Assembly: GCA_030065935.1 (NCBI GenBank)
Contig: JASJCP010000029.1
Location: 1,798-65,797, forward strand
Direction of reading: 5' to 3'
Source of the DNA: Xenococcaceae cyanobacterium MO_167.B27
GTDB lineage: Bacteria; Cyanobacteriota; Cyanobacteriia; Cyanobacteriales; Xenococcaceae
DNA length: 64,000 bases
Position numbers and translations under genes: made by a program
Notes under the pieces: generated by a model
What the model was told of the DNA's origin: nothing
Databases searched by the model: none
Seen by the model: the letters and a program-made list of their open reading frames with translations, nothing else
Shown: in pieces, positions 314 through 31,150 of the stretch
How the letters are laid out: every line of letters starts with the position of its first letter
Position numbering within the stretch: position 1 is the first letter of the stretch

Positions 314-3300
314 TTATTCTAATCCAGAGCCGAAAGCCTGTCGAAAATGGCGATCTTTAATGATCAGTAACCCATCTGTCCAATCGTCAAAAGCTAACTG
401 TGCTGAGGTTTCTATTGCAGTAGCAATATCACGACCCGATAAACCAACTAGAGCTTGAGCATAAACATTTAGGTCAACATCCTTATCTAATACCCAATCG
501 GGATGAATTTTGACCTGTAATAATTGCAATATTTCTTTGGCTCCTGGTAAAGGTATGAGAATTTCTCTTTGTAAGCGAGAGCGCACCGCAGCATCGACAT
601 TTTGAGGATAATTGGTTGCACCTAAAACAAAAAGATAACCTTCCTGGGAATGAATACCATCCACTTCCTGAAGAAATTGATTGACCAAGTTTTGGTTTTC
701 CAAATCTGCACCAGTACTACCTAGATTTTCTCGATTGGGAAATAGGGATTCTATTTCATCGAAGAAGAGAATCCCTGGAGAATTTTGACGAGCTTGGTTA
801 AAGACATCCGCTAGATTGCGGGAACTTTGACCGACCCATTTACTGCGGATCTCTGCTGGGGAGTAGCTTTTGAAATATAATCCTGATACCGAAGCCATCA
901 CCCTGGCAATTTGGGTTTTACCTGTTCCTGGTTCTCCACACAGTAGTGCGCCTTGGGGAGGATTAATTCCTGGAGGCAAATGGGCATAGTTGGCAACTAA
1001 TTTTAGCAATCGCTGGAGTTCGGTTTTAATCTGAGTCGGTAAAATAACATCATCCCAAGTTAGTTCTCCCAATGGTGCTTTGGCTTGTAATACTGCCTGA
1101 AAATCTTCTGTGGTAATCACTAGAGATTCTTCAGCAGAAATGCGATCGCTGGCATACTGACCTACTTCACTGACTAATTGCCGTAGATCCCGACCAGATT
1201 TGCCTTGTAGTAGTCGGGCAATCTTTTCCCAGTCTAAATGAGGAGCAATATTCATTTCTCTAGTAAATAAGCGCAGCATTGCTATACGCTCTGGTACGGC
1301 AGGTAGGGAAAGTTCCACTACTTTGTTCAAGCGAGAGCGTACTGCCTTATCTACCCGTTCTACATAATTAGTTGTTCCCACAACAAATACCCCTTTAGTT
1401 CCACCACGAAAACCATCTAGTTCTTGTAATAGCTGATTAATTAGTTCAATTTCATGTTGGGGACTGTTGCTGTCTCGTTGAGGAAAGAGAGCTTCAATTT
1501 CATCAATGAATAGGATTGCGGGAGCGTCTCGTCTAGCTTTAGCAAAGGTTTGGGCTAGTTTTTGGGTAGCTTCTCCTACATATTGGGAACGTACTTCGGC
1601 AATGGTTAGATTAATAAAGTTACAGCCAGCAGCTTTTGCTAACACTCTGGCTACTTGGGTTTTGCCAGTGCCAGGAGGTCCATAGAGTAGTATTCCTGGA
1701 GCGGGAGTCACGCCAGGCAGAGGATTACGGAAAAAGTCTAGAAATCTTTTAAGAGTAGTTTGAAGGGTTTGTTGGATTTCGGCAGGGAGAATTAATTGCT
1801 GCCAGGCAGAAGAATCGATCGCCACAGGGGGAAGTAATATTTGATCAAAATCAGCGCGGGTAAGAATTACTTTTGTCTTCGACCAGCCGTTTCTCTGGAT
1901 ATAGGCTTGTCCCACGCGAGATAATAACCTTTGGATATCTCGTCCCGATTTCCCGTCTAGTAGCTTACTAATTGTTGTTAGATTCACATCAGTAGCTAGT
2001 TGCCAATCCTTTTTCTGCAAAGCTTGTTCTAACATGATGCGCCGTTCTTCTAATCCAGGTAAAGGGACTTCTAGAGTTGGCTGCAAGCGAGAAATTACTG
2101 CTGGATCAACTGCCTCCCCACGGTTGGTTGTTGCCAAAATAAAAATTCCTGCTGCTCCATCTATCTGTTGTAAAAATTCATTGACTAATTCTACTTCTGT
2201 GTTGCTGCTGCCAGGTTCTCGACGGGGGAAAAGAGAATCAATTTCATCAAATAAGAGAATACAAGGAGAGCGATCGCGTGCATCGTTAAAAATAGTTTGT
2301 AAGTTCCGTAAACTGCCACCTTGATAGGGACTTTGCACTTCACTAGGGTTGATTGCCCGAAAATACCAACCCGTTTTAGCAGCTAAATAGCGAGCAATTT
2401 GGGTTTTGCCCGTTCCTGGTAAGCCGATTAATAGCATTCCTTGAGGGAGATCGAGTCCTAAACTCAGAGCTTGGGGTAAATTCTGGAGCGTGGTCAGAGT
2501 TTGCTCTACTCTTTGCCTGATAGGAGGCGACAGAATAAGCTCAGGAACATTCTGATTATCTCCTGTGCCTAAAATAGCTTGTTGAAAATGCTCTAGGGTA
2601 ATCTCTCCTTCATCCTTTTCTTGGCAAGCTAGGTGATAGGCTTCCTCTACTTTAGCCTTAATCGCACGACCCGACTTACCTGCTAAGAGTAAAGCAACCG
2701 CCTGCCAATCTAGTTGAGGAGCAACTGGACGTTCTCCCACAAATAATTTCAGTAACTCGATTCGTTCTGGTAATTCTGGCAAAGGAATCGCGATCGCTTT
2801 TGCTAAACGAGAACGAACGGCAGCATCTACCTGTTCTGGTCTATTAGTAGCTCCTACAACCAAAATTCCCCTGGCACTGTGTTTAACTCCATCTACCTCC
2901 TGAAGAAATTGATTGACCAACTCGATTTCATGTTGAGCTGTATTTTCACCACGAGAAGGAAAAAGACCGTCAATTTCGTCAAAAAAGAGGATAGCAGGGG
3001 AATTACGGCGAGCCTGGGCAAAAATTCGGGCTAATTTGCGGTTACTCTCTCCCACAAACTTGTCTCGAACGTCTCCCGCATTGATTCCTTGGAACTGAAT
3101 CCCCCCTAATTTTGCCATCGCCCTAGCAATTTCCGTTTTTCCCGTCCCAGGAGAGCCAGACAATAATAAACCTGCGGGAGGGGTTAGCCTTGGATTGGCA
3201 AAAGCTTGGAGAAATTGGGCTAAAGTTCTAGTAAGTTGCTTTCTCAATCTCTCTGGTAGAATCACCCCTGTAAGTTCCCCAGTTATTTTAGGAACTAAAA

Positions 3301-5203
3301 CTGAGTCAAACTGTTCTCGATTCAAAATCAAGTCAGAATGTGGCAATTGCCCTACTACCCGTTCTGCGATCGCTTTAATTTCTCTGCCTGATTTACCAAT
3401 TAGCAGTTGAGCATAATAGTTTAAATCTACATCCGCAGCTAGTTCCAGATTTTTATGCGGATTTTTAAGGGTAAAGTATGCCAACATTTGCTCTCGTTGT
3501 GATTCATCAGGTAGAGGCAAAGTAATTTGCTCTTGAAGTCGGGATAATACTGCTGGCTCGACTTGCTCTATGCGATTGGTGGTCGCTACAATCATTACCC
3601 CTGTAGAGGGGGATAGGCGGTCTATTTCTTGCAGAAATTGGTTAATCACCTCTCCACTAGTAGGGTCTCCTATCTGTTCATCTTGCCTGGGCAAGATAGC
3701 ATCTATTTCGTCAAACAATAGCATTGCTGGTGCTTTAACCCTGGCTTCAGCAAAAATATTTTGTAAGTTTTGCAGACTTTGACCAACGAGAGAACTTTTA
3801 ATTTTGCCTGGAGTTACGGTAATTAACTCACAGTTGGCATCTTGAGCCAATAGCTTACTGAGGGTTGTTTTTCCTGTTCCTGAAGCCCCATTTATCATTA
3901 GAGTTACGGGACAATCTGAGTTAGGGTAAGTAGCAAGATCCCATTCTCGCCATTGCCATCCCCATTGCTGAAACTGCTGTAACAATGGGGATGGCAGAAA
4001 AATCTGTTGCCAAATTTCTTCTGTAGATAAGGGCAAAAAGGGCTGAAAATGCTGCCAATCTAAATAGGGATTGCCAGTTTCATAGCGATATTTTTCAGCA
4101 TCTTTGACAATTTGGGCAATTTGATGACCGTCAATGCGTCCCAATCTTTGGGCTAAAACTACTAAATTTAGTTCTGGAGTTAGAGGACTATTAGTTTGAT
4201 GGAGATATTTGTTTAAAATTGCCACTCGACCTTCGAGATCGGGTTTGGGAACAGGTAAAACAAAGCTAAATAATCCTCCAGACTGTCGGAATTCTGGCGG
4301 GAGAATTTCTAAATTTTTAACCGCAGCAAGAATAATAATCTTTTTGGCTTGTTGCCGATTCCACTGCCAATAATTATCTAAGTTATCTCCTAGTTTTTCC
4401 TCCAATTGGCGAGATTTTTCCGCCTCAGAAGCTAAGTCTGCCACTCCCAGACTACCCCAAAAACGATTCCACCAAGTTGTTTGACCAGTGTTAGTCTGAC
4501 TAAATTGTTCAGTTTGTTGCAGATAGTGATAAAAAGTATCAAAATTCTGGAGCAAAATTACTGTAGGTGCGTGTTTAATGCTTTCTTTCAGCGATCGCTT
4601 AATTAATTTGCCTGCTTGATAAAGATTGTGAGCCTTACCTACATCCCTACTTATAAAGTTAAAGCTGATACCCCGCTCCTGACTCAATTCATCTGCCAAA
4701 CAGCGAGCTAAGAAACGTTTGCCTCTCCCTTCTCCTGCCACTAGCAGAATTCCTTGGACAGAGTGATTAAGATCCGCATCCAGAATCAAGTCACTATAGC
4801 GTTTAAGTTGAGTTCGTACCTGAGAATGACCCCGAAAGTTATCTAAACTGAAGGGTGGACTAGGGGGCGGTTCGGGATAATATAATTCTTGGTCATTGCT
4901 AGCTAACAGAGACTGAGTCTCAGGTACTAAACGCAACATTACTCCTGGTTCTTGACCCAAACGAAACCATTGATAAGGATTGATTGGCTGTTCTTGAATA
5001 GGCTGGTCTTGGATATAGGTTCCATAGGTGCTACTACAATCCCGCAGATACCAACTTCCTTCCGTCCAAAAAAGTTCCGCATGACTCCGAGAAACGGTAG
5101 GAATATCAAAACGAATATCCTGATTAGGATGACGACCGAGTCCATATACTCGGTCTTGATGTAGTAGCCAAGTTTGTCCAGAATCTTGCTCTTCCAAGAA
5201 CAT
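314..5203 (-). CDS. Giant FHA-domain protein with six tandem AAA+ ATPase modules (one degenerate, five canonical; classic-clade-like)
   Basis: 1629-aa ORF. The N-terminus has FHA signatures (GLGR...SRSHAEL...RDCSSTYGT). Walker A motifs fall at hand-counted aa 156 (GEGRGKR, degenerate), 439 (GASGTGKT), 683 (GSPGTGKT), 927 (GLPGTGKT), 1175 (GPPGTGKT) and 1423 (GEPGTGKT). Each canonical module also has a Walker B (LLFDEID, LFFDEID, LFIDEIE, LFFDEIE), a sensor-1 TN, a VD.AV.SRL motif and a lid motif GKSGR[DAE]I. Module spacing is 244-248 aa. Confidence 0.9.
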   Translation of the reverse strand: MFLEEQDSGQTWLLHQDRVYGLGRHPNQDIRFDIPTVSRSHAELFWTEGSWYLRDCSSTYGTYIQDQPIQEQPINPYQWFRLGQEPGVMLRLVPETQSLLASNDQELYYPEPPPSPPFSLDNFRGHSQVRTQLKRYSDLILDADLNHSVQGILLVAGEGRGKRFLARCLADELSQERGISFNFISRDVGKAHNLYQAGKLIKRSLKESIKHAPTVILLQNFDTFYHYLQQTEQFSQTNTGQTTWWNRFWGSLGVADLASEAEKSRQLEEKLGDNLDNYWQWNRQQAKKIIILAAVKNLEILPPEFRQSGGLFSFVLPVPKPDLEGRVAILNKYLHQTNSPLTPELNLVVLAQRLGRIDGHQIAQIVKDAEKYRYETGNPYLDWQHFQPFLPLSTEEIWQQIFLPSPLLQQFQQWGWQWREWDLATYPNSDCPVTLMINGASGTGKTTLSKLLAQDANCELITVTPGKIKSSLVGQSLQNLQNIFAEARVKAPAMLLFDEIDAILPRQDEQIGDPTSGEVINQFLQEIDRLSPSTGVMIVATTNRIEQVEPAVLSRLQEQITLPLPDESQREQMLAYFTLKNPHKNLELAADVDLNYYAQLLIGKSGREIKAIAERVVGQLPHSDLILNREQFDSVLVPKITGELTGVILPERLRKQLTRTLAQFLQAFANPRLTPPAGLLLSGSPGTGKTEIARAMAKLGGIQFQGINAGDVRDKFVGESNRKLARIFAQARRNSPAILFFDEIDGLFPSRGENTAQHEIELVNQFLQEVDGVKHSARGILVVGATNRPEQVDAAVRSRLAKAIAIPLPELPERIELLKLFVGERPVAPQLDWQAVALLLAGKSGRAIKAKVEEAYHLACQEKDEGEITLEHFQQAILGTGDNQNVPELILSPPIRQRVEQTLTTLQNLPQALSLGLDLPQGMLLIGLPGTGKTQIARYLAAKTGWYFRAINPSEVQSPYQGGSLRNLQTIFNDARDRSPCILLFDEIDSLFPRREPGSSNTEVELVNEFLQQIDGAAGIFILATTNRGEAVDPAVISRLQPTLEVPLPGLEERRIMLEQALQKKDWQLATDVNLTTISKLLDGKSGRDIQRLLSRVGQAYIQRNGWSKTKVILTRADFDQILLPPVAIDSSAWQQLILPAEIQQTLQTTLKRFLDFFRNPLPGVTPAPGILLYGPPGTGKTQVARVLAKAAGCNFINLTIAEVRSQYVGEATQKLAQTFAKARRDAPAILFIDEIEALFPQRDSNSPQHEIELINQLLQELDGFRGGTKGVFVVGTTNYVERVDKAVRSRLNKVVELSLPAVPERIAMLRLFTREMNIAPHLDWEKIARLLQGKSGRDLRQLVSEVGQYASDRISAEESLVITTEDFQAVLQAKAPLGELTWDDVILPTQIKTELQRLLKLVANYAHLPPGINPPQGALLCGEPGTGKTQIARVMASVSGLYFKSYSPAEIRSKWVGQSSRNLADVFNQARQNSPGILFFDEIESLFPNRENLGSTGADLENQNLVNQFLQEVDGIHSQEGYLFVLGATNYPQNVDAAVRSRLQREILIPLPGAKEILQLLQVKIHPDWVLDKDVDLNVYAQALVGLSGRDIATAIETSAQLAFDDWTDGLLIIKDRHFRQAFGSGLE
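317..4756 (-). other. Array of six AAA+ modules within one ORF (internal tandem duplication at protein level)
   Basis: Walker A, Walker B and lid motifs recur about every 245 aa. The first module lacks the DE of Walker B (VILLQNFD). Confidence 0.8.
4919..5152 (-). other. FHA (phosphothreonine-binding) domain of the 1629-aa protein
   Basis: aa ~18-95: RVYGLGRHPNQDIRFDIPTVSRSHAELFWTEGSWYLRDCSSTYGTYI. This carries the conserved G-R, S-R-x-H and S-x-x-G-T positions of FHA domains. Confidence 0.8.
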
Positions 5204-13170: not shown

Positions 13171-13559
13171 GATATAGATTCTGGATGAAAGATTCTGGAA
13201 ATATAAGCCGACTATAAGATTACATCTTGACCCAATGCTTACCCTATTAACAATCAGAGGTTTAATAAAGATTGAAAATGCTACAAGAAATTTGGCAGGA
13301 GATACTAAATTTAAAACAAGATAAAGAGTTTACTCGTAACTTAATTGTTGTGTTTATTATCACGATCGCATCTTCTCTAATTTTAGCGGAACAATACCGC
13401 CATCCTGCAAGACTAGCTCAACAACCAAGATTAACCCAATTTTATAACCTAGTATCTGTGGGAATGGTAATTAGGACTTATGACACTTTGCTGAATAAGG
13501 AATAAAGTTTTCATTAGTAATTGAAAAATTTTTGCGACTGCTCCTATTTATCATATTTT

Positions 13560-13990
13560 TTTGTAACCCCCCTTGCTCTCTGGTACAGGGAAAGGTTGTT
13601 GGCGACTATACATTTAGTAATATTTATTCAGGATAATACAAATAAATAAAATTCATATTCGAGTTTAGCTTCCTGAGAGAAAGTTATAATCGCTTTGTTC
13701 GGGCTATATAGAGCCACAGCAATTTGAAGGGAGTCATAAATCCCTAGAGAAGAGCAATCCCCACCAATGAATTGGGGGGCTTGTAAATCTTGTATATGAC
13801 CAGACTAAGCCAATATATTTGGCTACGTTAAACAGGCTATCTCACCCTTAAGTGCTTGCCAGCTTGAGGCTCTGAGGCTTTAAATTAAACATCTTTAGAG
13901 GGATTAAGGAAGTGTTTGAAGCACGACAAACCTTTTTAACTTTGTCGAGGCAAACTTTACACATTTATGTAGAAGAGACAAAACCATGTC
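13560..13990 (+). ncRNA. Candidate IscB omega-RNA (guide-scaffold RNA) in the non-coding leader upstream of iscB
   Basis: There is no credible ORF in the ~480 nt upstream of iscB. Perfect hairpins lie at 13759-13777, 13808-13824 and 13924-13947. In described IscB loci the omega-RNA lies immediately 5' of, and runs into, the ORF. The boundaries given here are guesses. Confidence 0.45.
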
Positions 13991-15464
13991 TAATTACGTA
14001 TTCGTTCTAGATACCAACAAGCAACCATTGTCGCCCTGTACACCAGGGATGGCTCGTAGTCTGCTCAAGGCAGGGAAGGCAGAGGTATTTAAGCGGTATC
14101 CGTTCACGATCATTTTAAAAAAAACCGTCAACTCATACCAACTTGCGTTCAGAAACGTAACTTTGAAGTTGGCTTTCCAATCTGCCGATTCCAAATTTAA
14201 TCCGCGTTTTGCTCGACTTAACACAAAGCACGAAAATTACACTTTAGATAGCAAGCTGGTATCAAAGGAGATTAAACCATGTCAATTAAAACTCGACCCA
14301 GGTTCAGTCACTACTGGTATAGCAATATTGCAAGATAATAAGCTTATCTGGGCTGCTGAATTAACCCATAGAGGGCAAAAAATTAAAGACGATTTAGAAT
14401 GTAGACGCTCTTTAAGAAGAGGTCGTAGAGGCAGAAAAACTAGATATAGAAAACCTAGGTTTCTGAATCGTAAGCGGTCTAAAGGATGGTTAGCACCGAG
14501 TTTAGAACATCGAGTTTTAACCATCATGACTTGGGTTAACCGATTAATTAAGCTTTGTCCGATTAATTCTATTGCCACAGAATTAGTCAGATTTGATACC
14601 CAAAAACTCAATAACCCAGAAATATCAGGAGTTGAGTATCAACAAGGAACTCTTTATCAGTACGAAGTTAGACAATATTTATTGGAGAAATTCAACAGAA
14701 CCTGTGCTTATTGTGGTGTTAAAGACGTTCCTTTGGAAGTTGAGCATATTAAGCCCAAATCCAAAGGTGGTAGTAACAGAGTTTCTAACCTAGCTATTGC
14801 CTGCGTTTCTTGCAACCAAGCTAAGTCAAATCTAAATATTAAAGAGTTTCTGTTTGGCAAACCATCAGTTTTGAAAAGAATTTTAGCTCAAGCTAAAGCC
14901 CCATTGAAAGATGCTGCTGCGGTTAATTCAACTCGATGGAAACTATTTAATACTCTTAAAGAGACTGGCTTACCTGTAACCACTGGAACAGGAGGAAAAA
15001 CTAAGTTTAACCGATCTGTGCAAAGTCTAAAAAAGCGTCACTATCTAGATGCTGCTTGTGTTGGAGACACCCCAAAACTTGAGATACTAACAACTCAACC
15101 ATTGCTAATCAAATGTGCTGGTCATGGAAAAAGACAAGTTATTCACGTCGATAAATTTGGTTTTCCTAAAAGAAATAAATCAGGAGAACTTGTGAAAAAA
15201 TCGGCTTTGATTAAATCAATCAAAGGTTTTAGAACTGGAGATATTGTGAAAGCAATAGTTCCCAAAGGTAAGAAAATTGACCGTGGGGGATGCTCTCGGT
15301 TAGAGAGCATATCCAACCACGGTGTTGGCTTTTATTTAGGTAAGGTTGCCATCCGTTCTACTGGTTCATTTAATATCAAAACTGTTACCAAAACGGTGCA
15401 GGGGATTAATTATAAATATTGCAGCATTGTTCATAGGAAAGATGGATACCTTTATGGCTTCTAA
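13986..15464 (+). CDS. iscB: IscB, an OMEGA-family RNA-guided nuclease (PLMP, split RuvC with inserted HNH, C-terminal target-interaction domain)
   Basis: 492 aa. PLMP-type N-terminus: MSNYVFVLDTNKQPLSPCTPGMARSLLKAGKAEVFKRYPFTIIL. RuvC-I: LKLDPGSVTTGIA (D104). Arginine-rich bridge helix: RRSLRRGRRGRKTRYRKPRF. RuvC-II: ATELVRFD (E199). HNH: CAYCG...EVEHIKPKSKGGSNRVSNLAIACVSCN. RuvC-III: HYLDAACVG (D355). Confidence 0.85.
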   Translation: MSNYVFVLDTNKQPLSPCTPGMARSLLKAGKAEVFKRYPFTIILKKTVNSYQLAFRNVTLKLAFQSADSKFNPRFARLNTKHENYTLDSKLVSKEIKPCQLKLDPGSVTTGIAILQDNKLIWAAELTHRGQKIKDDLECRRSLRRGRRGRKTRYRKPRFLNRKRSKGWLAPSLEHRVLTIMTWVNRLIKLCPINSIATELVRFDTQKLNNPEISGVEYQQGTLYQYEVRQYLLEKFNRTCAYCGVKDVPLEVEHIKPKSKGGSNRVSNLAIACVSCNQAKSNLNIKEFLFGKPSVLKRILAQAKAPLKDAAAVNSTRWKLFNTLKETGLPVTTGTGGKTKFNRSVQSLKKRHYLDAACVGDTPKLEILTTQPLLIKCAGHGKRQVIHVDKFGFPKRNKSGELVKKSALIKSIKGFRTGDIVKAIVPKGKKIDRGGCSRLESISNHGVGFYLGKVAIRSTGSFNIKTVTKTVQGINYKYCSIVHRKDGYLYGF

Positions 15465-15570
15465 AGTATTGAAGCCCTATCGGGCTGCTGTTTATGTAAG
15501 GGAAGTTCTCCTCCCCATACATGAATGCGATAAGGGGTATCCTTTCCTTCCCTTACCAACCCTATTTACG

Positions 15571-16860
15571 ATGAAACACCGTATCAGTAAGCTCTATAAT
15601 ACCTCTGCAAATAGACTAGTACAATTCAGTCGGCTATACGGTCGTCCTTCGTGGATTATTTTCCTCTTTATTTTCGCTCTTATAATAGTAATGGCTGGCT
15701 CTGGTTTGAGTTATCCTACTTCCGCTCAAACAAGCGATTGTAAGGCATCTCGGGAACTACGAGGAGTTTGGCTGACTAATATTGATAGTGAAGTTTTATT
15801 TTCTCCCGAAAATACGACTAATGGGATTGCAACCCTGGCAGAATTAAATTTTAATACACTTTACCCCACAGTATGGAATTGGGGTTATACACTTTATCCT
15901 TCGTCGGTAGCAGAGCAAGCCATAGGAACTGCTCTGGATCCTACACCAGGTTTACAAGGTAGAGATGTTTTACAAGAAATCATCCAACAGGGACATCAAC
16001 AGGGAATGACTGTAATTCCTTGGTTTGAGTTTGGCTTTATGGCACCTGCTGACTCTACACTAGCGGTTAAGCACCCTGAATGGTTAACCGCCAGACAAGA
16101 TGGTACTACTATTTGGTGGGAAGGAAAAGTACATCAAAGAGTATGGTTAAATCCCCTCCATCCAGAAGTTCAAAAATTAATCACTGATTTGGTGGTAGAA
16201 CTAGTTAGTAAATACGACATAGAGGGGATTCAATTTGATGACCACTTTGGTTATCCCTCTGAACTAGGGTACGATGACTATACGGTGGCACTGTATAAAC
16301 AAGAGCATCAGGGACAATCACCCCCAACAAATCATAAGGATAAAGATTGGGTACGTTGGCGAGCAGACAAAATTACTGCTTATATGGAAAATCTCTTCCG
16401 AGCTATTAAACAAGCCAATCCTCAAGCAATTGTCTCTTTATCTCCCAATCCTCAAAACTTTTCCCTCAATTCTTTTCTCCTCGACTGGAAAACTTGGGAA
16501 AGAAAAGGATTAATTGAAGAATTAGTATTGCAAGTATATCGTTCTCAGTATAATAGTTTTCTCCGAGAAATCACTCAGCCAGAAGTCATTGAAGCTAAAA
16601 ATCATATCCCCGTAAGTATTGGTGTCTTATCAGGTTTAAAAGGTCGTCCTGTGATGTTTGGGAGAATTCGTCAACAGGTCAACGGTCTTAGAGAAAAGGG
16701 TTTCGCGGGAGTCTCTTTTTTCTTCTATGAAAGTCTTTGGAATTTAGCAATTGAATCTCCTAAACAAAGAAAAACTGCTTGGAAGTCTTTATTTCCCGAT
16801 TCAGCTAAATATCCTCATATCTCTGATTGTCAAGACCCAACAACCCAGAAAAACAATTAA
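15571..16860 (+). CDS. GHL10 / DUF187-type glycoside-hydrolase-like protein (YngK/YddW family), secreted
   Basis: The listed ORF starts at 15346, inside iscB. I prefer the ATG at 15571 (MKHRISKL...), which is followed by a TM/signal segment. RGVWLTNIDS...LNFNTLYPTVWNWGYTLYPS and IQFDDHFGYP resemble the family. Confidence 0.7.
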   Translation: MKHRISKLYNTSANRLVQFSRLYGRPSWIIFLFIFALIIVMAGSGLSYPTSAQTSDCKASRELRGVWLTNIDSEVLFSPENTTNGIATLAELNFNTLYPTVWNWGYTLYPSSVAEQAIGTALDPTPGLQGRDVLQEIIQQGHQQGMTVIPWFEFGFMAPADSTLAVKHPEWLTARQDGTTIWWEGKVHQRVWLNPLHPEVQKLITDLVVELVSKYDIEGIQFDDHFGYPSELGYDDYTVALYKQEHQGQSPPTNHKDKDWVRWRADKITAYMENLFRAIKQANPQAIVSLSPNPQNFSLNSFLLDWKTWERKGLIEELVLQVYRSQYNSFLREITQPEVIEAKNHIPVSIGVLSGLKGRPVMFGRIRQQVNGLREKGFAGVSFFFYESLWNLAIESPKQRKTAWKSLFPDSAKYPHISDCQDPTTQKNN

Positions 16861-18560: not shown

Positions 18561-19069
18561 CAGCATTTAATCCTCTATTACGTATCACTTCAGCAGCAGC
18601 TATATCTCTATTTTGCTCGTATCCGCACTCAGAACAAAAGTGTATTCTTTTTGAGATAATTACCATTAATCTCAAACTTGTTACTCAGAAGATTAAAAGA
18701 TTTCATCCTCTTCTTGTAACGCGGGAATCCCATACCTAATCGTGCCATATCATTGAACGCTCTATCCAGCTTTCTCAAAGTTTGTTGCATAGCCTGAGCG
18801 TTACCAGATTTCAAGTAAGGGTTAGTTTTCTTAGCTTGAGTTAGCTCCGCAGATTGAATATGGTAAGACGGATATTCAAAGGGTTCGACAACATATTCAG
18901 AGATTAGAGAACACTTATTGATATCGCACTTACGACTGTTATACCAAAGTTTTCTTTGATATAGAGCATGATTCCAAACGCTTTTACAAACAGCAAGATT
19001 ATGATCGATTATTTCTATTTGCTTCTTGTTTGGTTGTAGTTTGTAGGTGTAAGTGAGATTAAATGTCAC
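18430..19069 (-). pseudogene. tnpB: TnpB (IS200/IS605-family OMEGA nuclease) with a large internal deletion
   Basis: An N-terminal 146-aa ORF (MTFNLTYTYKLQPNKKQIEIID...GFPRYKKRMKSFNL..FEINGN) joins in a different frame to a C-terminal piece (HFCSECGYEQNRDIAAAEVIRNRGL). The central RuvC-I/II region of roughly 200 aa is missing. Confidence 0.75.
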
Positions 19070-30890: not shown

Positions 30891-31150
30891 TCCTTTGAAA
30901 CAAACCAATTTAAACAACAACTTTGATTAACTTGCATCAGATTTTATCTGAAGTCAACATTGATTTTCTCCTACTTAACCTTGGTATGTGCGCCGAGGTT
31001 TTTTACTGTTTACCTCAACCAAATTGGTAATGTATTGCAAACGCTAGGTTATTAATTACAAATAATGAGATTTACGCTAACTATGGGACGATAGAAACTA
31101 ACGGACAATTAACTACAACTTAATCATTAAGTAGTTTGATTTTAAGAACT

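Follow-up and report, generated by a model that had tools for sequence, protein, structure and literature searches.

The 64-kb stretch of DNA that we analysed (the window), from the MAG Xenococcaceae cyanobacterium MO_167.B27, probably carries at 13733-15570 a non-autonomous ISC transposon of the IS200/IS605 superfamily that encodes an IscB nuclease and its ωRNA (Table 1). The element separates the start codon of a host GHL10 gene from its 5' UTR. The locus is an IscB that has already been annotated, the NCBI record of the identical protein (same MAG) reading "RNA-guided endonuclease IscB", and it represents no discovery; IscB-ωRNA systems, the HEARO RNA, ISC termini and the cyanobacterial N|ATGA target have all been published. 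Its discovery value is accordingly small and its practical value modest: it is a fully delimited natural example, in which ends, guide, target-adjacent motif (TAM) and empty site are all defined from sequence at one locus.

Table 1. Features of the IscB locus and its surroundings (positions in the window)
Feature	Position	Strand	Remarks
Host TATAAT, candidate -10	13685..13690	+	same position in IscB-free orthologs L088 and L090
Predicted guide of the ωRNA, GCCACAGCAATTTGAAGGGA	13713..13732	+	host DNA abutting the 5' end of the element
Complete element, probably ISC (IscB-encoding, IS200/IS605 superfamily), 1838 bp	13733..15570	+	termini 5'-GTCA...TTTACG-3'
ωRNA scaffold, Rfam HEARO RF02033, full-length match	13733..13960	+	135.5 bits, model 1-211
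3' extension of ωRNA and iscB translation-start region	13961..13985	+	two sequence variants; conservation reaches the ATG in every relative
iscB ORF	13986..15464	+	492 aa; C-terminal domain ~361-492
MITE, ~122 bp	14138..14259	+	TA flanks 14136-14137 and 14260-14261
Second in-frame insertion, 48 nt, hairpin potential	15279..15326	+	encodes DRGGCSRLESISNHGV, residues 432-447, C-terminal domain
iscB-distal transposon end (TnpA-sense "left end")	15465..15570	+	conserved in L001, L003, L007 and L028
Predicted TAM ATGAA, host DNA	15571..15575	+	also start codon of the GHL10 gene
GHL10 (glycoside-hydrolase) gene, host	15571-16860	+	starts at the junction ATG, same orientation as the element

The IscB protein and its catalytic motifs

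The initial annotation had read the 492-aa ORF as IscB, and this was borne out: its product scored 454.1 bits against the NCBIfam equivalog NF040563 (guided_IscB; cutoff 175), matched RRXRR and HNH in Pfam, and had IscB chains as its nearest solved structures in the PDB, with Cas9 also among the matches. PF01844 (HNH) covers residues 240-282, between RuvC-II and RuvC-III. The motifs lie where they had been placed from the letters alone: a PLMP-type N-terminal domain (PLSP, residues 14-17), RuvC-I (KLDPGS, D104), an arginine-rich bridge helix (RRSLRRGRRGRKTRYRKPRF, residues 140-159), RuvC-II (ATELVRFD, E199), an HNH domain with Cys pairs C240/C243 and C273/C276 and an LEVEH motif with H254, and RuvC-III (RHYLDAA, H352 and D355). 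At the N-terminus, residues 5-44 align with OgeuIscB 4-44 and residues 4-52 with TbaIscB, and the beginning of both family models (RRXRR and guided_IscB) is matched too.

In the alignment to solved IscB chains, D104, E199, H254 and H352/D355 face the conserved DPG, LEL, HH and HYLDA motifs of OgeuIscB, with no catalytic residue substituted; the OgeuIscB counterparts are D61, E193 and H247 in the published numbering. The same residues and C240, C243, C273 and C276 are invariant in 15 relatives. Judged by sequence, all RuvC and HNH catalytic residues of this IscB are in place. Codon comparisons with four relatives gave dN/dS values of 0.07-0.11, and by this measure iscB is under purifying selection. 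Residues 361-492 are conserved among relatives and have no sequence-level alignment to the IscBs of the PDB; an AlphaFold2 model of the protein (15-sequence alignment A1) had a mean pLDDT of 35 and a pTM of 0.18.

Insertions inside iscB

For the catalytic motifs the description of the ORF as apparently intact was right, but the reading frame has taken up a MITE, which is translated, and a further insertion of 16 aa. The protein measures 492 aa, or 433 aa minus both, which is within the ~400-500 aa of IscB proteins, and like them it has no REC lobe. The longer spacer between PLMP motif and RuvC-I that had been remarked upon does exist: OgeuIscB and close relatives of 433 aa lack anything that corresponds to residues ~49-91. 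By alignment, this long spacer is the translated MITE, which lies in frame in the linker and has terminal inverted repeats of ~27-30 nt (CCAACTTGC...GCAAGCTGG). The MITE family emerged only from a metagenome scan with the consensus of its two arms, which occurred on 21 contigs; in four of these the arms form an inverted pair. Several copies show 74-95% identity and, in alignment, visible TA flanks; those in L096, L111, L105 and L091 reach 92-95% (alignment, BLAST). The copy in iscB has already diverged by 5-8% from its nearest relatives, so its insertion is not of very recent date. The one feature that bears on its parent, the TA flanks, suggests an IS630/Tc1-like element.

The 48-nt insertion contains an inverted repeat, is missing in 13 of the 14 aligned relatives and is common to the diverged P0002. 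A search of the window that allowed up to 3 mismatches turned up no second copy of it, and neither of the two iscB insertions had further BLAST matches in the window or in 80 related loci (L001-L080).

Folding, ωRNA binding or TAM reading could suffer from the 43-aa MITE segment and from the 16 extra residues in the C-terminal domain. The locus might then be an immobilised, dead relic, ISC by descent, whose IscB was inactivated by the MITE and/or the 16-aa insertion and is too young to have decayed. We consider this unlikely, although it is the only alternative that deserves serious weight. Two lineage-specific insertions in one gene would be in line with it, as would the divergence that the MITE copy has already reached; however, the MITE has a single open frame out of six, which is the translated one, and because a random 43-codon insert stays open only ~5% of the time, this placement suggests selection for intact ORFs. 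The linker also seems, from sequence comparison, to be permissive, as it holds unrelated insertions in L028, L002, P0004, P0006 and P0048, and the second insertion is found in P0002 as well. The distribution of the protein also speaks for a relic: the exact IscB occurs in one genomic context (five contigs) and its same-genome paralogs are only 70-74% identical, none nearly so close as to be a recent copy, and hence there is no sign of recent transposition; the window is also without a tnpA. Against this stand the intact state of every catalytic residue and an ωRNA that scores as high as the ωRNAs of relatives. We retain the non-autonomous ISC transposon as the main reading. The locus also constitutes a natural experiment on how far insertions are tolerated between PLMP and RuvC-I, which could interest the engineering of compact IscB editors.

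Element borders, target site and host gene

Borders were obtained by removing 13733-15570 in silico and comparing the result with IscB-free orthologous loci, these empty sites being located via orthologs of the downstream GHL10 protein. The element-removed sequence was collinear across the junction with L090 (84.9% over 675 nt) and L088 (76% over 678 nt). Empty sites read ...|ATGAAACA, and their alignment places the insertion precisely 5' of ATGA, without target-site duplication. A preference of HEARO for insertion at ATGA or GTGA was reportedly part of its original description by Weinberg and colleagues in Nature in 2009. Among 16 relatives, conservation begins at GTCA and ends at the [A/G]TGA junction; position 15570, at which the initial annotation had ended the locus, is the true end of the element.

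The iscB-distal end bears a perfect 10-bp inverted repeat (15496-15505 and 15547-15556), and in L007 the bases differ but still pair (GTAAGGGAAAATC / GATTTTCCCTTAC, by eye). The other end is the P1 region of the ωRNA, and both ends are conserved among relatives. As expected for ISC elements and the IS200/IS605 superfamily, they carry imperfect hairpins near the termini and lack terminal inverted repeats. In this superfamily TnpA recognises such subterminal hairpins, and cyanobacterial ISC elements are known to target N|ATGA (Kapitonov et al. 2016, PMC4810608). The ATGAA that follows the element is the reverse complement of TTCAT, the TAM measured for GstIscB (Meers et al. 2023, bioRxiv 10.1101/2023.03.14.532601).

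No Y1_Tnp (TnpA) was found among the ten ORFs of 110-153 aa in the window, in agreement with the earlier remark that no tnpA is adjacent. Lack of a tnpA in cis places the element in the non-autonomous class, which is the norm for iscB: only ~1.5% of iscB genes are near a tnpA (Meers et al. 2023). In the metagenome scan, GCAATTTGAAGG N0-8 AACACCGTATCA, which is the empty joint exactly as predicted, had 0 matches. On the host side, orthologs of GHL10 are mostly 425-434 aa long, consistent with a start at 15571.

The locus had been described as either non-autonomous or domesticated. The first term is supported by the ISC termini, the target and the scarless insertion. In a domesticated IscB, the host would use nuclease and guide, for instance in GHL10 regulation or in defence, and transposon behaviour would have been lost. 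The exact placement between host 5' UTR and start codon, through which the element must influence GHL10 expression, and its stability at the locus across five contigs speak for such a role, but the element still has its two intact ends, each of them conserved, and the guide is mere flanking sequence, as transposon logic demands. Catalytic residues have been kept, unlike in known repurposed relatives, which tend to be nuclease-dead (TnpB-derived TldR). The insertion is moreover absent from close orthologous genomes and so is not a fixed host feature. With ends intact and close orthologous genomes free of the insertion, we rejected domestication as the main reading and regard it as very improbable.

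The ωRNA and its predicted guide

Described IscB loci have their ωRNA upstream of the gene, and the leader here had been proposed as a candidate. A covariance-model search upstream of iscB gave a full-length match to HEARO (RF02033) at 135.5 bits (gathering score 83, E = 2.6e-29), ending 25 nt 5' of the iscB ATG. HEARO lies upstream in 16/16 close relatives, its position unchanged, and the score here is on a par with theirs. Across 15 relatives, 27 of the 46 consensus pairs showed compensatory changes, and 94.9% of alignment cells were paired vs 34-43% with slid partners, a structure signal far above slid and shuffled controls. The candidate was thus borne out by the match, by the relatives and by covariation.

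P1, the terminal helix, pairs 13733-13738 with 13795-13800, shows covariation and starts right at the element's first base. Long-range helix 2 pairs 13797-13805 with 13944-13952, and helix 4 pairs 13827-13832 with 13935-13940. Three hairpins had been singled out beforehand. Two of them, helix 1 (13759-13777) and helix 3 (13808-13824), are conserved and covarying; in this copy the third, 13924-13947, is also perfect, but it is not conserved, part of its 3' arm (13944-13947) belonging to helix 2 and its loop containing the 3' strand of helix 4. The leader had been put at ~480 nt, which proved too long: the structured RNA is 13733-13985, ~250 nt, and the empty-site comparison identifies the rest, 13506-13732, as host intergenic DNA. 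The absence of a credible ORF was confirmed, with no plus-strand ORF >42 aa within 13506-13985. As for the 3' extension listed in Table 1, the RF02033 model does not include downstream structural elements (Meers et al. 2023).

These results also dispose of a rival reading, in which the protein would be an ordinary restriction endonuclease (HNH or McrA type) and the structured 5' UTR would have nothing to do with it. The HNH Pfam matches and the JGI name "5-methylcytosine-specific restriction endonuclease McrA" given to P0049 and P0063 speak for that reading, but it has practically no chance of being correct and is ruled out, since HNH accounts for residues 240-282 only, RRXRR/RuvC and the IscB equivalog (454 bits) cover the rest, PDB matches are IscB and Cas9, and the RNA is HEARO.

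In the element as we read it, the guide would be supplied by the host. Among the IscB relatives there is no conservation 5' of the scaffold start, and the stretch 13713-13732 is homologous to the GHL10 5' UTR in empty-site orthologs. A guide located beyond the transposon boundary is what has been described for IscB (Meers et al. 2023). We infer an effective guide length of 16-20 nt; the guide 16-mer occurs once in the window.

Transcription and proposed mechanism

IscB elements require transcription from outside the element (Meers et al. 2023). The TATAAT hexamer in the host flank could drive guide, ωRNA and iscB. It failed a two-hexamer promoter scan, with no passing -35, and in sigma-70 and terminator scans no signal exceeded the shuffled expectation, nor did a promoter appear 5' of the guide. 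Conservation of the hexamer could instead serve the divergent GNAT gene of the orthologs.

We propose the following cycle, whose transcription, excision and recutting steps are drawn from published work. Transcription would start in host DNA upstream, at the TATAAT or by read-through from a small plus-strand ORF ending at 13505, and the last 16-20 host nt, ending at 13732, would serve as a guide fused to the scaffold 13733-13985. One transcript would also carry iscB and probably continue into GHL10. If the genome encodes a Y1 transposase (TnpA) at another locus, that enzyme would excise the element, and the flanks would rejoin as ...GCAATTTGAAGGGA|ATGAA.... The IscB-ωRNA complex would recognise this donor joint by its guide match and the 3' TAM ATGAA, and would cut it; the element would then be restored by recombination with a sister copy that is occupied. 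The occupied site would be immune because the guide match there precedes GTCAT, not ATGAA.

Start-codon junctions

An ORF of at least 100 aa opens exactly at the junction ATG in 11/14 distinct relatives, a count still compatible with the 5' UTR expectation of ~0.6 (p = 0.12), under which a bias would be trivial. As a tentative idea, somewhat less likely to be true than false, ISC elements of the N|ATGA lineage may persist preferentially at host start-codon ATGA. If so, a 1.8-kb cassette would sit between host promoter/5' UTR and coding sequence, the host promoter would be borrowed for the guide-bearing ωRNA, and the host gene would rely on read-through from the element. The TAM would in effect also detect start codons, and the element would be tied to its host gene in an obligate co-transcription unit. 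This start-codon reading is not stated in Kapitonov et al. 2016 (where "start codon" is absent) or in Meers et al. 2023 (where it appears in a figure-axis definition only). Such a bias would be a small testable point on how these elements get an external guide transcribed.

Comparison with known systems

Among the closest published systems are ISC1-1_MA from Microcystis aeruginosa and related cyanobacterial ISC transposons (Kapitonov et al. 2016), ISC1-1_MA being likewise a non-autonomous element with IscB only in a cyanobacterial host. Both have 5'-GTCA...CG-3' termini, N|ATGA, no duplication and empty orthologous sites. Compared through that description, the locus here differs in its diverged sequence, in its Xenococcaceae MAG host and in the MITE and 48-nt insertion in iscB. 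GstIscB of Geobacillus stearothermophilus (ISGst IscB; Meers et al. 2023) shares an ωRNA (HEARO) that abuts one end, with the guide outside and the TAM at the other end, as well as the lack of an adjacent tnpA and an orientation that follows upstream transcription. The phylum differs, and activity, TAM and donor-joint cleavage are experimental for GstIscB whereas here they are predicted.

OgeuIscB-ωRNA (PDB 7XHT, 7UTN, 8CSZ) shows the same order of PLMP, RuvC-I, bridge helix, RuvC-II, HNH, RuvC-III and C-terminal domain. The catalytic motifs align, although similarity is low (~80-89 bits); the IscB here has ~44 extra residues between PLMP and RuvC-I, from the MITE, and its C-terminal domain is without sequence alignment to that of OgeuIscB. 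The OgeuIscB TAM is NWRRNA (PMC12660989) and not ATGA.

Relative to Rfam RF02033, the match is full length and likewise 5' of an HNH/IscB ORF, with a first hairpin region of 28 nt vs 10 in the model. The 5' end of the ωRNA is of the subtype GTCATRAATC..., unlike the GTCAGCACC... subtype of other close relatives.

IscB and its ωRNA

That the locus is an ISC element encoding IscB and an ωRNA is close to certain, and it is already known: its annotation exists, and it agrees point by point with published accounts. As an account of the whole, we favor as likely a mobile ISC element whose transcription and donor joint follow the model presented below; our reservation concerns mostly the activity of an IscB copy that bears a MITE. 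Judged from sequence, the features of IscB, of a HEARO/ωRNA and of a non-autonomous ISC transposon (one of two options in the initial annotation) are all found, the fold of the C-terminal domain excepted.

Features of the ISC element and its surroundings (window coordinates unless a related locus is named)
Feature	Position	Strand	Remarks
Small ORF	13272-13505	+	75-77 aa; no Pfam match on record; position conserved beside NTRC gene in related loci L087 and L088
Segment unmatched in IscB-free loci	~13422-13601		~180 nt; compared with L088 3394-3885 and L090 96-599
TATAAT	13685-13690		43 nt upstream of the element
Predicted guide	13713-13732		terminal 16-20 nt of host DNA
ISC element	13733-15570	+	1838 bp; termini 5'-GTCA...TTTACG-3'; target N, then ATGA; duplication absent; from empty-site alignment
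HEARO match (RF02033)	13733-13960		only match in the window
iscB ORF	13986-15464	+	492 aa
MITE	14138-14259		inside iscB
MITE relatives	L091, L093, L096-L099, L101, L104-L106, L110, L111		dispersed in the same metagenomes
Second insertion	15279-15326		48 nt; 16 extra residues (432-447) in C-terminal domain; hairpin potential
Start-codon junctions	15571; L081/L082 5387; L084 5384; L024 about 6385; others		
HTH_OrfB_IS605 ORF	18632-19069	-	146 aa
PsrR1	30926-31003	+	43.4 bits, barely over gathering score 42

Every motif listed in the initial annotation sits at its residue: PLSP (14-17), DPGS with D104, an arginine-rich stretch (140-159), ELVRFD with E199, C240/C243 and C273/C276, EVEH with H254, and HYLDA with H352 and D355. 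Pfam models place RRXRR (PF14239, E = 7.7e-72) and HNH domains in the protein, which also reaches 454 bits with the NCBIfam equivalog NF040563 ("RNA-guided endonuclease IscB"; cutoff 175). The closest solved structures are all IscBs first (TbaIscB, OgeuIscB, HfmIscB), then IsrB and small Cas9s; at residue level, D104, E199, H254 and H352/D355 align opposite the conserved catalytic motifs of characterised IscBs. An identical protein in NCBI (P0001) bears the same name as the equivalog, and the same MAG holds two further IscBs with 70-74% identity.

The covariance-model search proposed for the region upstream of iscB returned a full-length HEARO (135.5 bits, gathering score 83, E = 2.6e-29), an RNA since identified as the ωRNA of IscB (Meers et al. 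2023; PMC9755519). Together with NF040563, the structure alignments and covariation, this supports the reading of IscB with an upstream ωRNA. All 16 close relatives carry a full-length HEARO ending ~25 nt 5' of the iscB ATG. In a 15-sequence alignment RNAalifold predicted 46 pairs, 27 of them changed on both sides with pairing kept. Paired cells under this predicted structure amount to 94.9%, versus 34-43% with partners slid by 1-3 columns, and its covariation score of 0.52 (0.05-0.14 with slid partners) was reached by none of 500 shuffles. A terminal 6-bp helix (13733-13738/13795-13800) starts at scaffold base 1, and its positions 5-6 covary among subtypes. Among the three hairpins proposed earlier, 13759-13777 and 13808-13824 are conserved helices, but 13924-13947 is not conserved: the family consensus uses part of its 3' arm and loop for long-range helices 2 and 4. 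Plus-strand ORFs in 13506-13985 are all 42 aa or shorter, as expected from the claim of no credible ORF there. The leader of ~480 nt has to be shortened, however, to an ωRNA of ~250 nt, 13506-13732 being host intergenic DNA that would contribute the guide.

Close relatives combine either of two ωRNA 5' subtypes (GTCAGCACCyCGC... or GTCATRAATCYC...) with either of two forms of the 3' stretch preceding the ATG (ACA..GTAGAAGAGACAAAACC or CCA..GGAGAA.AGACGCAAAA) in different ways, a hint of recombination between elements. Some relatives have enlarged ωRNA regions (a 341-nt HEARO match in L014, 4410-4750; a ~90-nt insert within the scaffold in L084, about 3700-4000), which suggests insertions of small elements in the ωRNA gene as well.

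Insertion between a 5' UTR and its coding sequence

Conservation among relatives is nil 5' of the GTCA opening the element, and extends ~105 nt 3' of the iscB stop, up to ATGA or GTGA. Three orthologous loci (L088, L089, L090) are free of IscB. When we deleted the element in silico, the joined flanks aligned collinearly across the joint (84.9% over 675 nt with L090; 76% over 678 nt with L088). The orthologs read "...ggaaagga" directly followed by ATGAAACACCG, and the window "...gaaggga", the element, then ATGAAACACCG. This alignment sets the element's length and its insertion before ATGA without duplication, as in the Microcystis element ISC1-1_MA and further ISC transposons of cyanobacteria, for which the same pattern was reported (Kapitonov et al. 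2016).

These empty sites, together with ortholog lengths (mostly 425-434 aa), show ATG 15571 to be the native start of GHL10, the downstream glycoside-hydrolase gene. Gene callers lengthen GHL10 to 468 aa (P0121), or to 504 aa from a TTG start; the called extensions (15346-15570; L087 4469) run into the transposon end and the iscB 3' end. In orthologous loci a GNAT acetyltransferase gene (minus strand) separates GHL10 from the small conserved ORF. This gene is missing from the window, where ~180 nt of unmatched sequence stand instead; DNA beside the insertion site was thus deleted or replaced.

Across 14 distinct junctions (close relatives and same-MAG paralogs), 11 open an ORF of at least 100 aa (106-1349 aa) exactly at the junction ATG, versus a background of 14.3% over every [A/G]TGA site of these loci; at the two same-MAG paralog loci, independent gene calls begin there. 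Where the junction ATG is the host's first codon, the element lies exactly between host 5' UTR and coding sequence. The excess is significant against the 0.143 background (p = 1e-7) and against 0.3 (p = 2.5e-4), but not against ~0.6 (p = 0.12), our estimate should insertions persist in sense-oriented 5' UTRs alone, so the known target motif and need for upstream transcription may suffice to explain it.

Proposed transcription and mobilization

Biogenesis of IscB ωRNA requires transcription initiated outside the element, the guide is located outside it, and IscB elements are biased to the upstream gene's orientation (Meers et al. 2023). Here the element occupies the former GHL10 5' UTR in sense orientation, below a TATAAT that the IscB-free orthologs share. 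On the Meers et al. model, the guide would be the last host nucleotides before the element; its 16-mer is unique in the window, with no second perfect or near-perfect match. Read on the opposite strand, the junction ATGAA gives TTCAT, which Meers et al. (2023) measured as the GstIscB TAM, written in TnpA orientation. By analogy with this established work, a guide/ωRNA transcript would start at the TATAAT or read through from the small ORF, which points toward the ωRNA; TnpA in trans would excise the element, and the rejoined flanks would present a guide match followed by ATGAA; IscB would cleave this target, after which recombination would bring the element back.

The initial annotation saw no adjacent tnpA, and indeed none of ten suitably sized ORFs in the window is a Y1 transposase. 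This is ordinary, since tnpA lies near only ~1.5% of iscB genes (Meers et al. 2023). The HTH_OrfB_IS605 ORF matches only that N-terminal domain of TnpB (E = 1e-9) and represents either what is left of a truncated TnpB or an independent HTH protein; in L084, a similar ORF of 130 aa (3024-3416) precedes the paralogous IscB.

Two insertions within iscB

The earlier description of IscB as apparently intact holds for its catalytic residues, but the ORF carries two in-frame insertions, residues 49-91 and 432-447, relative to close relatives of mostly 433 aa. The first accounts for the long PLMP-to-RuvC-I spacer noticed before, and coincides with an imperfect 30-nt inverted repeat (14135-14164/14233-14262). 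A metagenome scan with the two-arm consensus retrieved 21 contigs, most of them produced by the sequencing project that also yielded the relatives; 4 of the 21 have paired inverted arms ~90 nt apart. Their alignment defines a ~122-bp family with ~27-nt arms, ending in CCAACTTGC...GCAAGTTGG flanked by TA on both sides. Four members share 92-95% identity with the window copy; by this alignment the linker insert is a MITE, probably IS630/Tc1-like given its TA flanks.

The second insertion, which could form a hairpin (ACCGTGG..GCTCTC GGTTA GAGAGC..CCACGGT) and has no further copies in the window or the related loci examined, is common only to this IscB and P0002; the confidence of structure prediction (pLDDT 35) is too low to place either insertion. 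Either insertion, or both, could have left IscB a dead relic. On the other side, dN/dS of 0.07-0.11 against four relatives, a rough value given saturated dS, points to purifying selection in this IscB's lineage. Only one of six frames through the MITE is open, the one translated in iscB, and a random 43-codon insert stays open with ~5% chance, which hints weakly at selection for an uninterrupted ORF. Unrelated insertions in the same linker of L028, L002, P0004, P0006 and P0048 make it seem permissive. We regard an inactive MITE-bearing copy as rather unlikely, and retain the mobile ISC element as our reading.

Further downstream lies a match to photosynthesis regulatory RNA 1 (PsrR1), which agrees with a cyanobacterial origin of the window; PsrR1 also occurs near the IscB relatives in L006 and L009.
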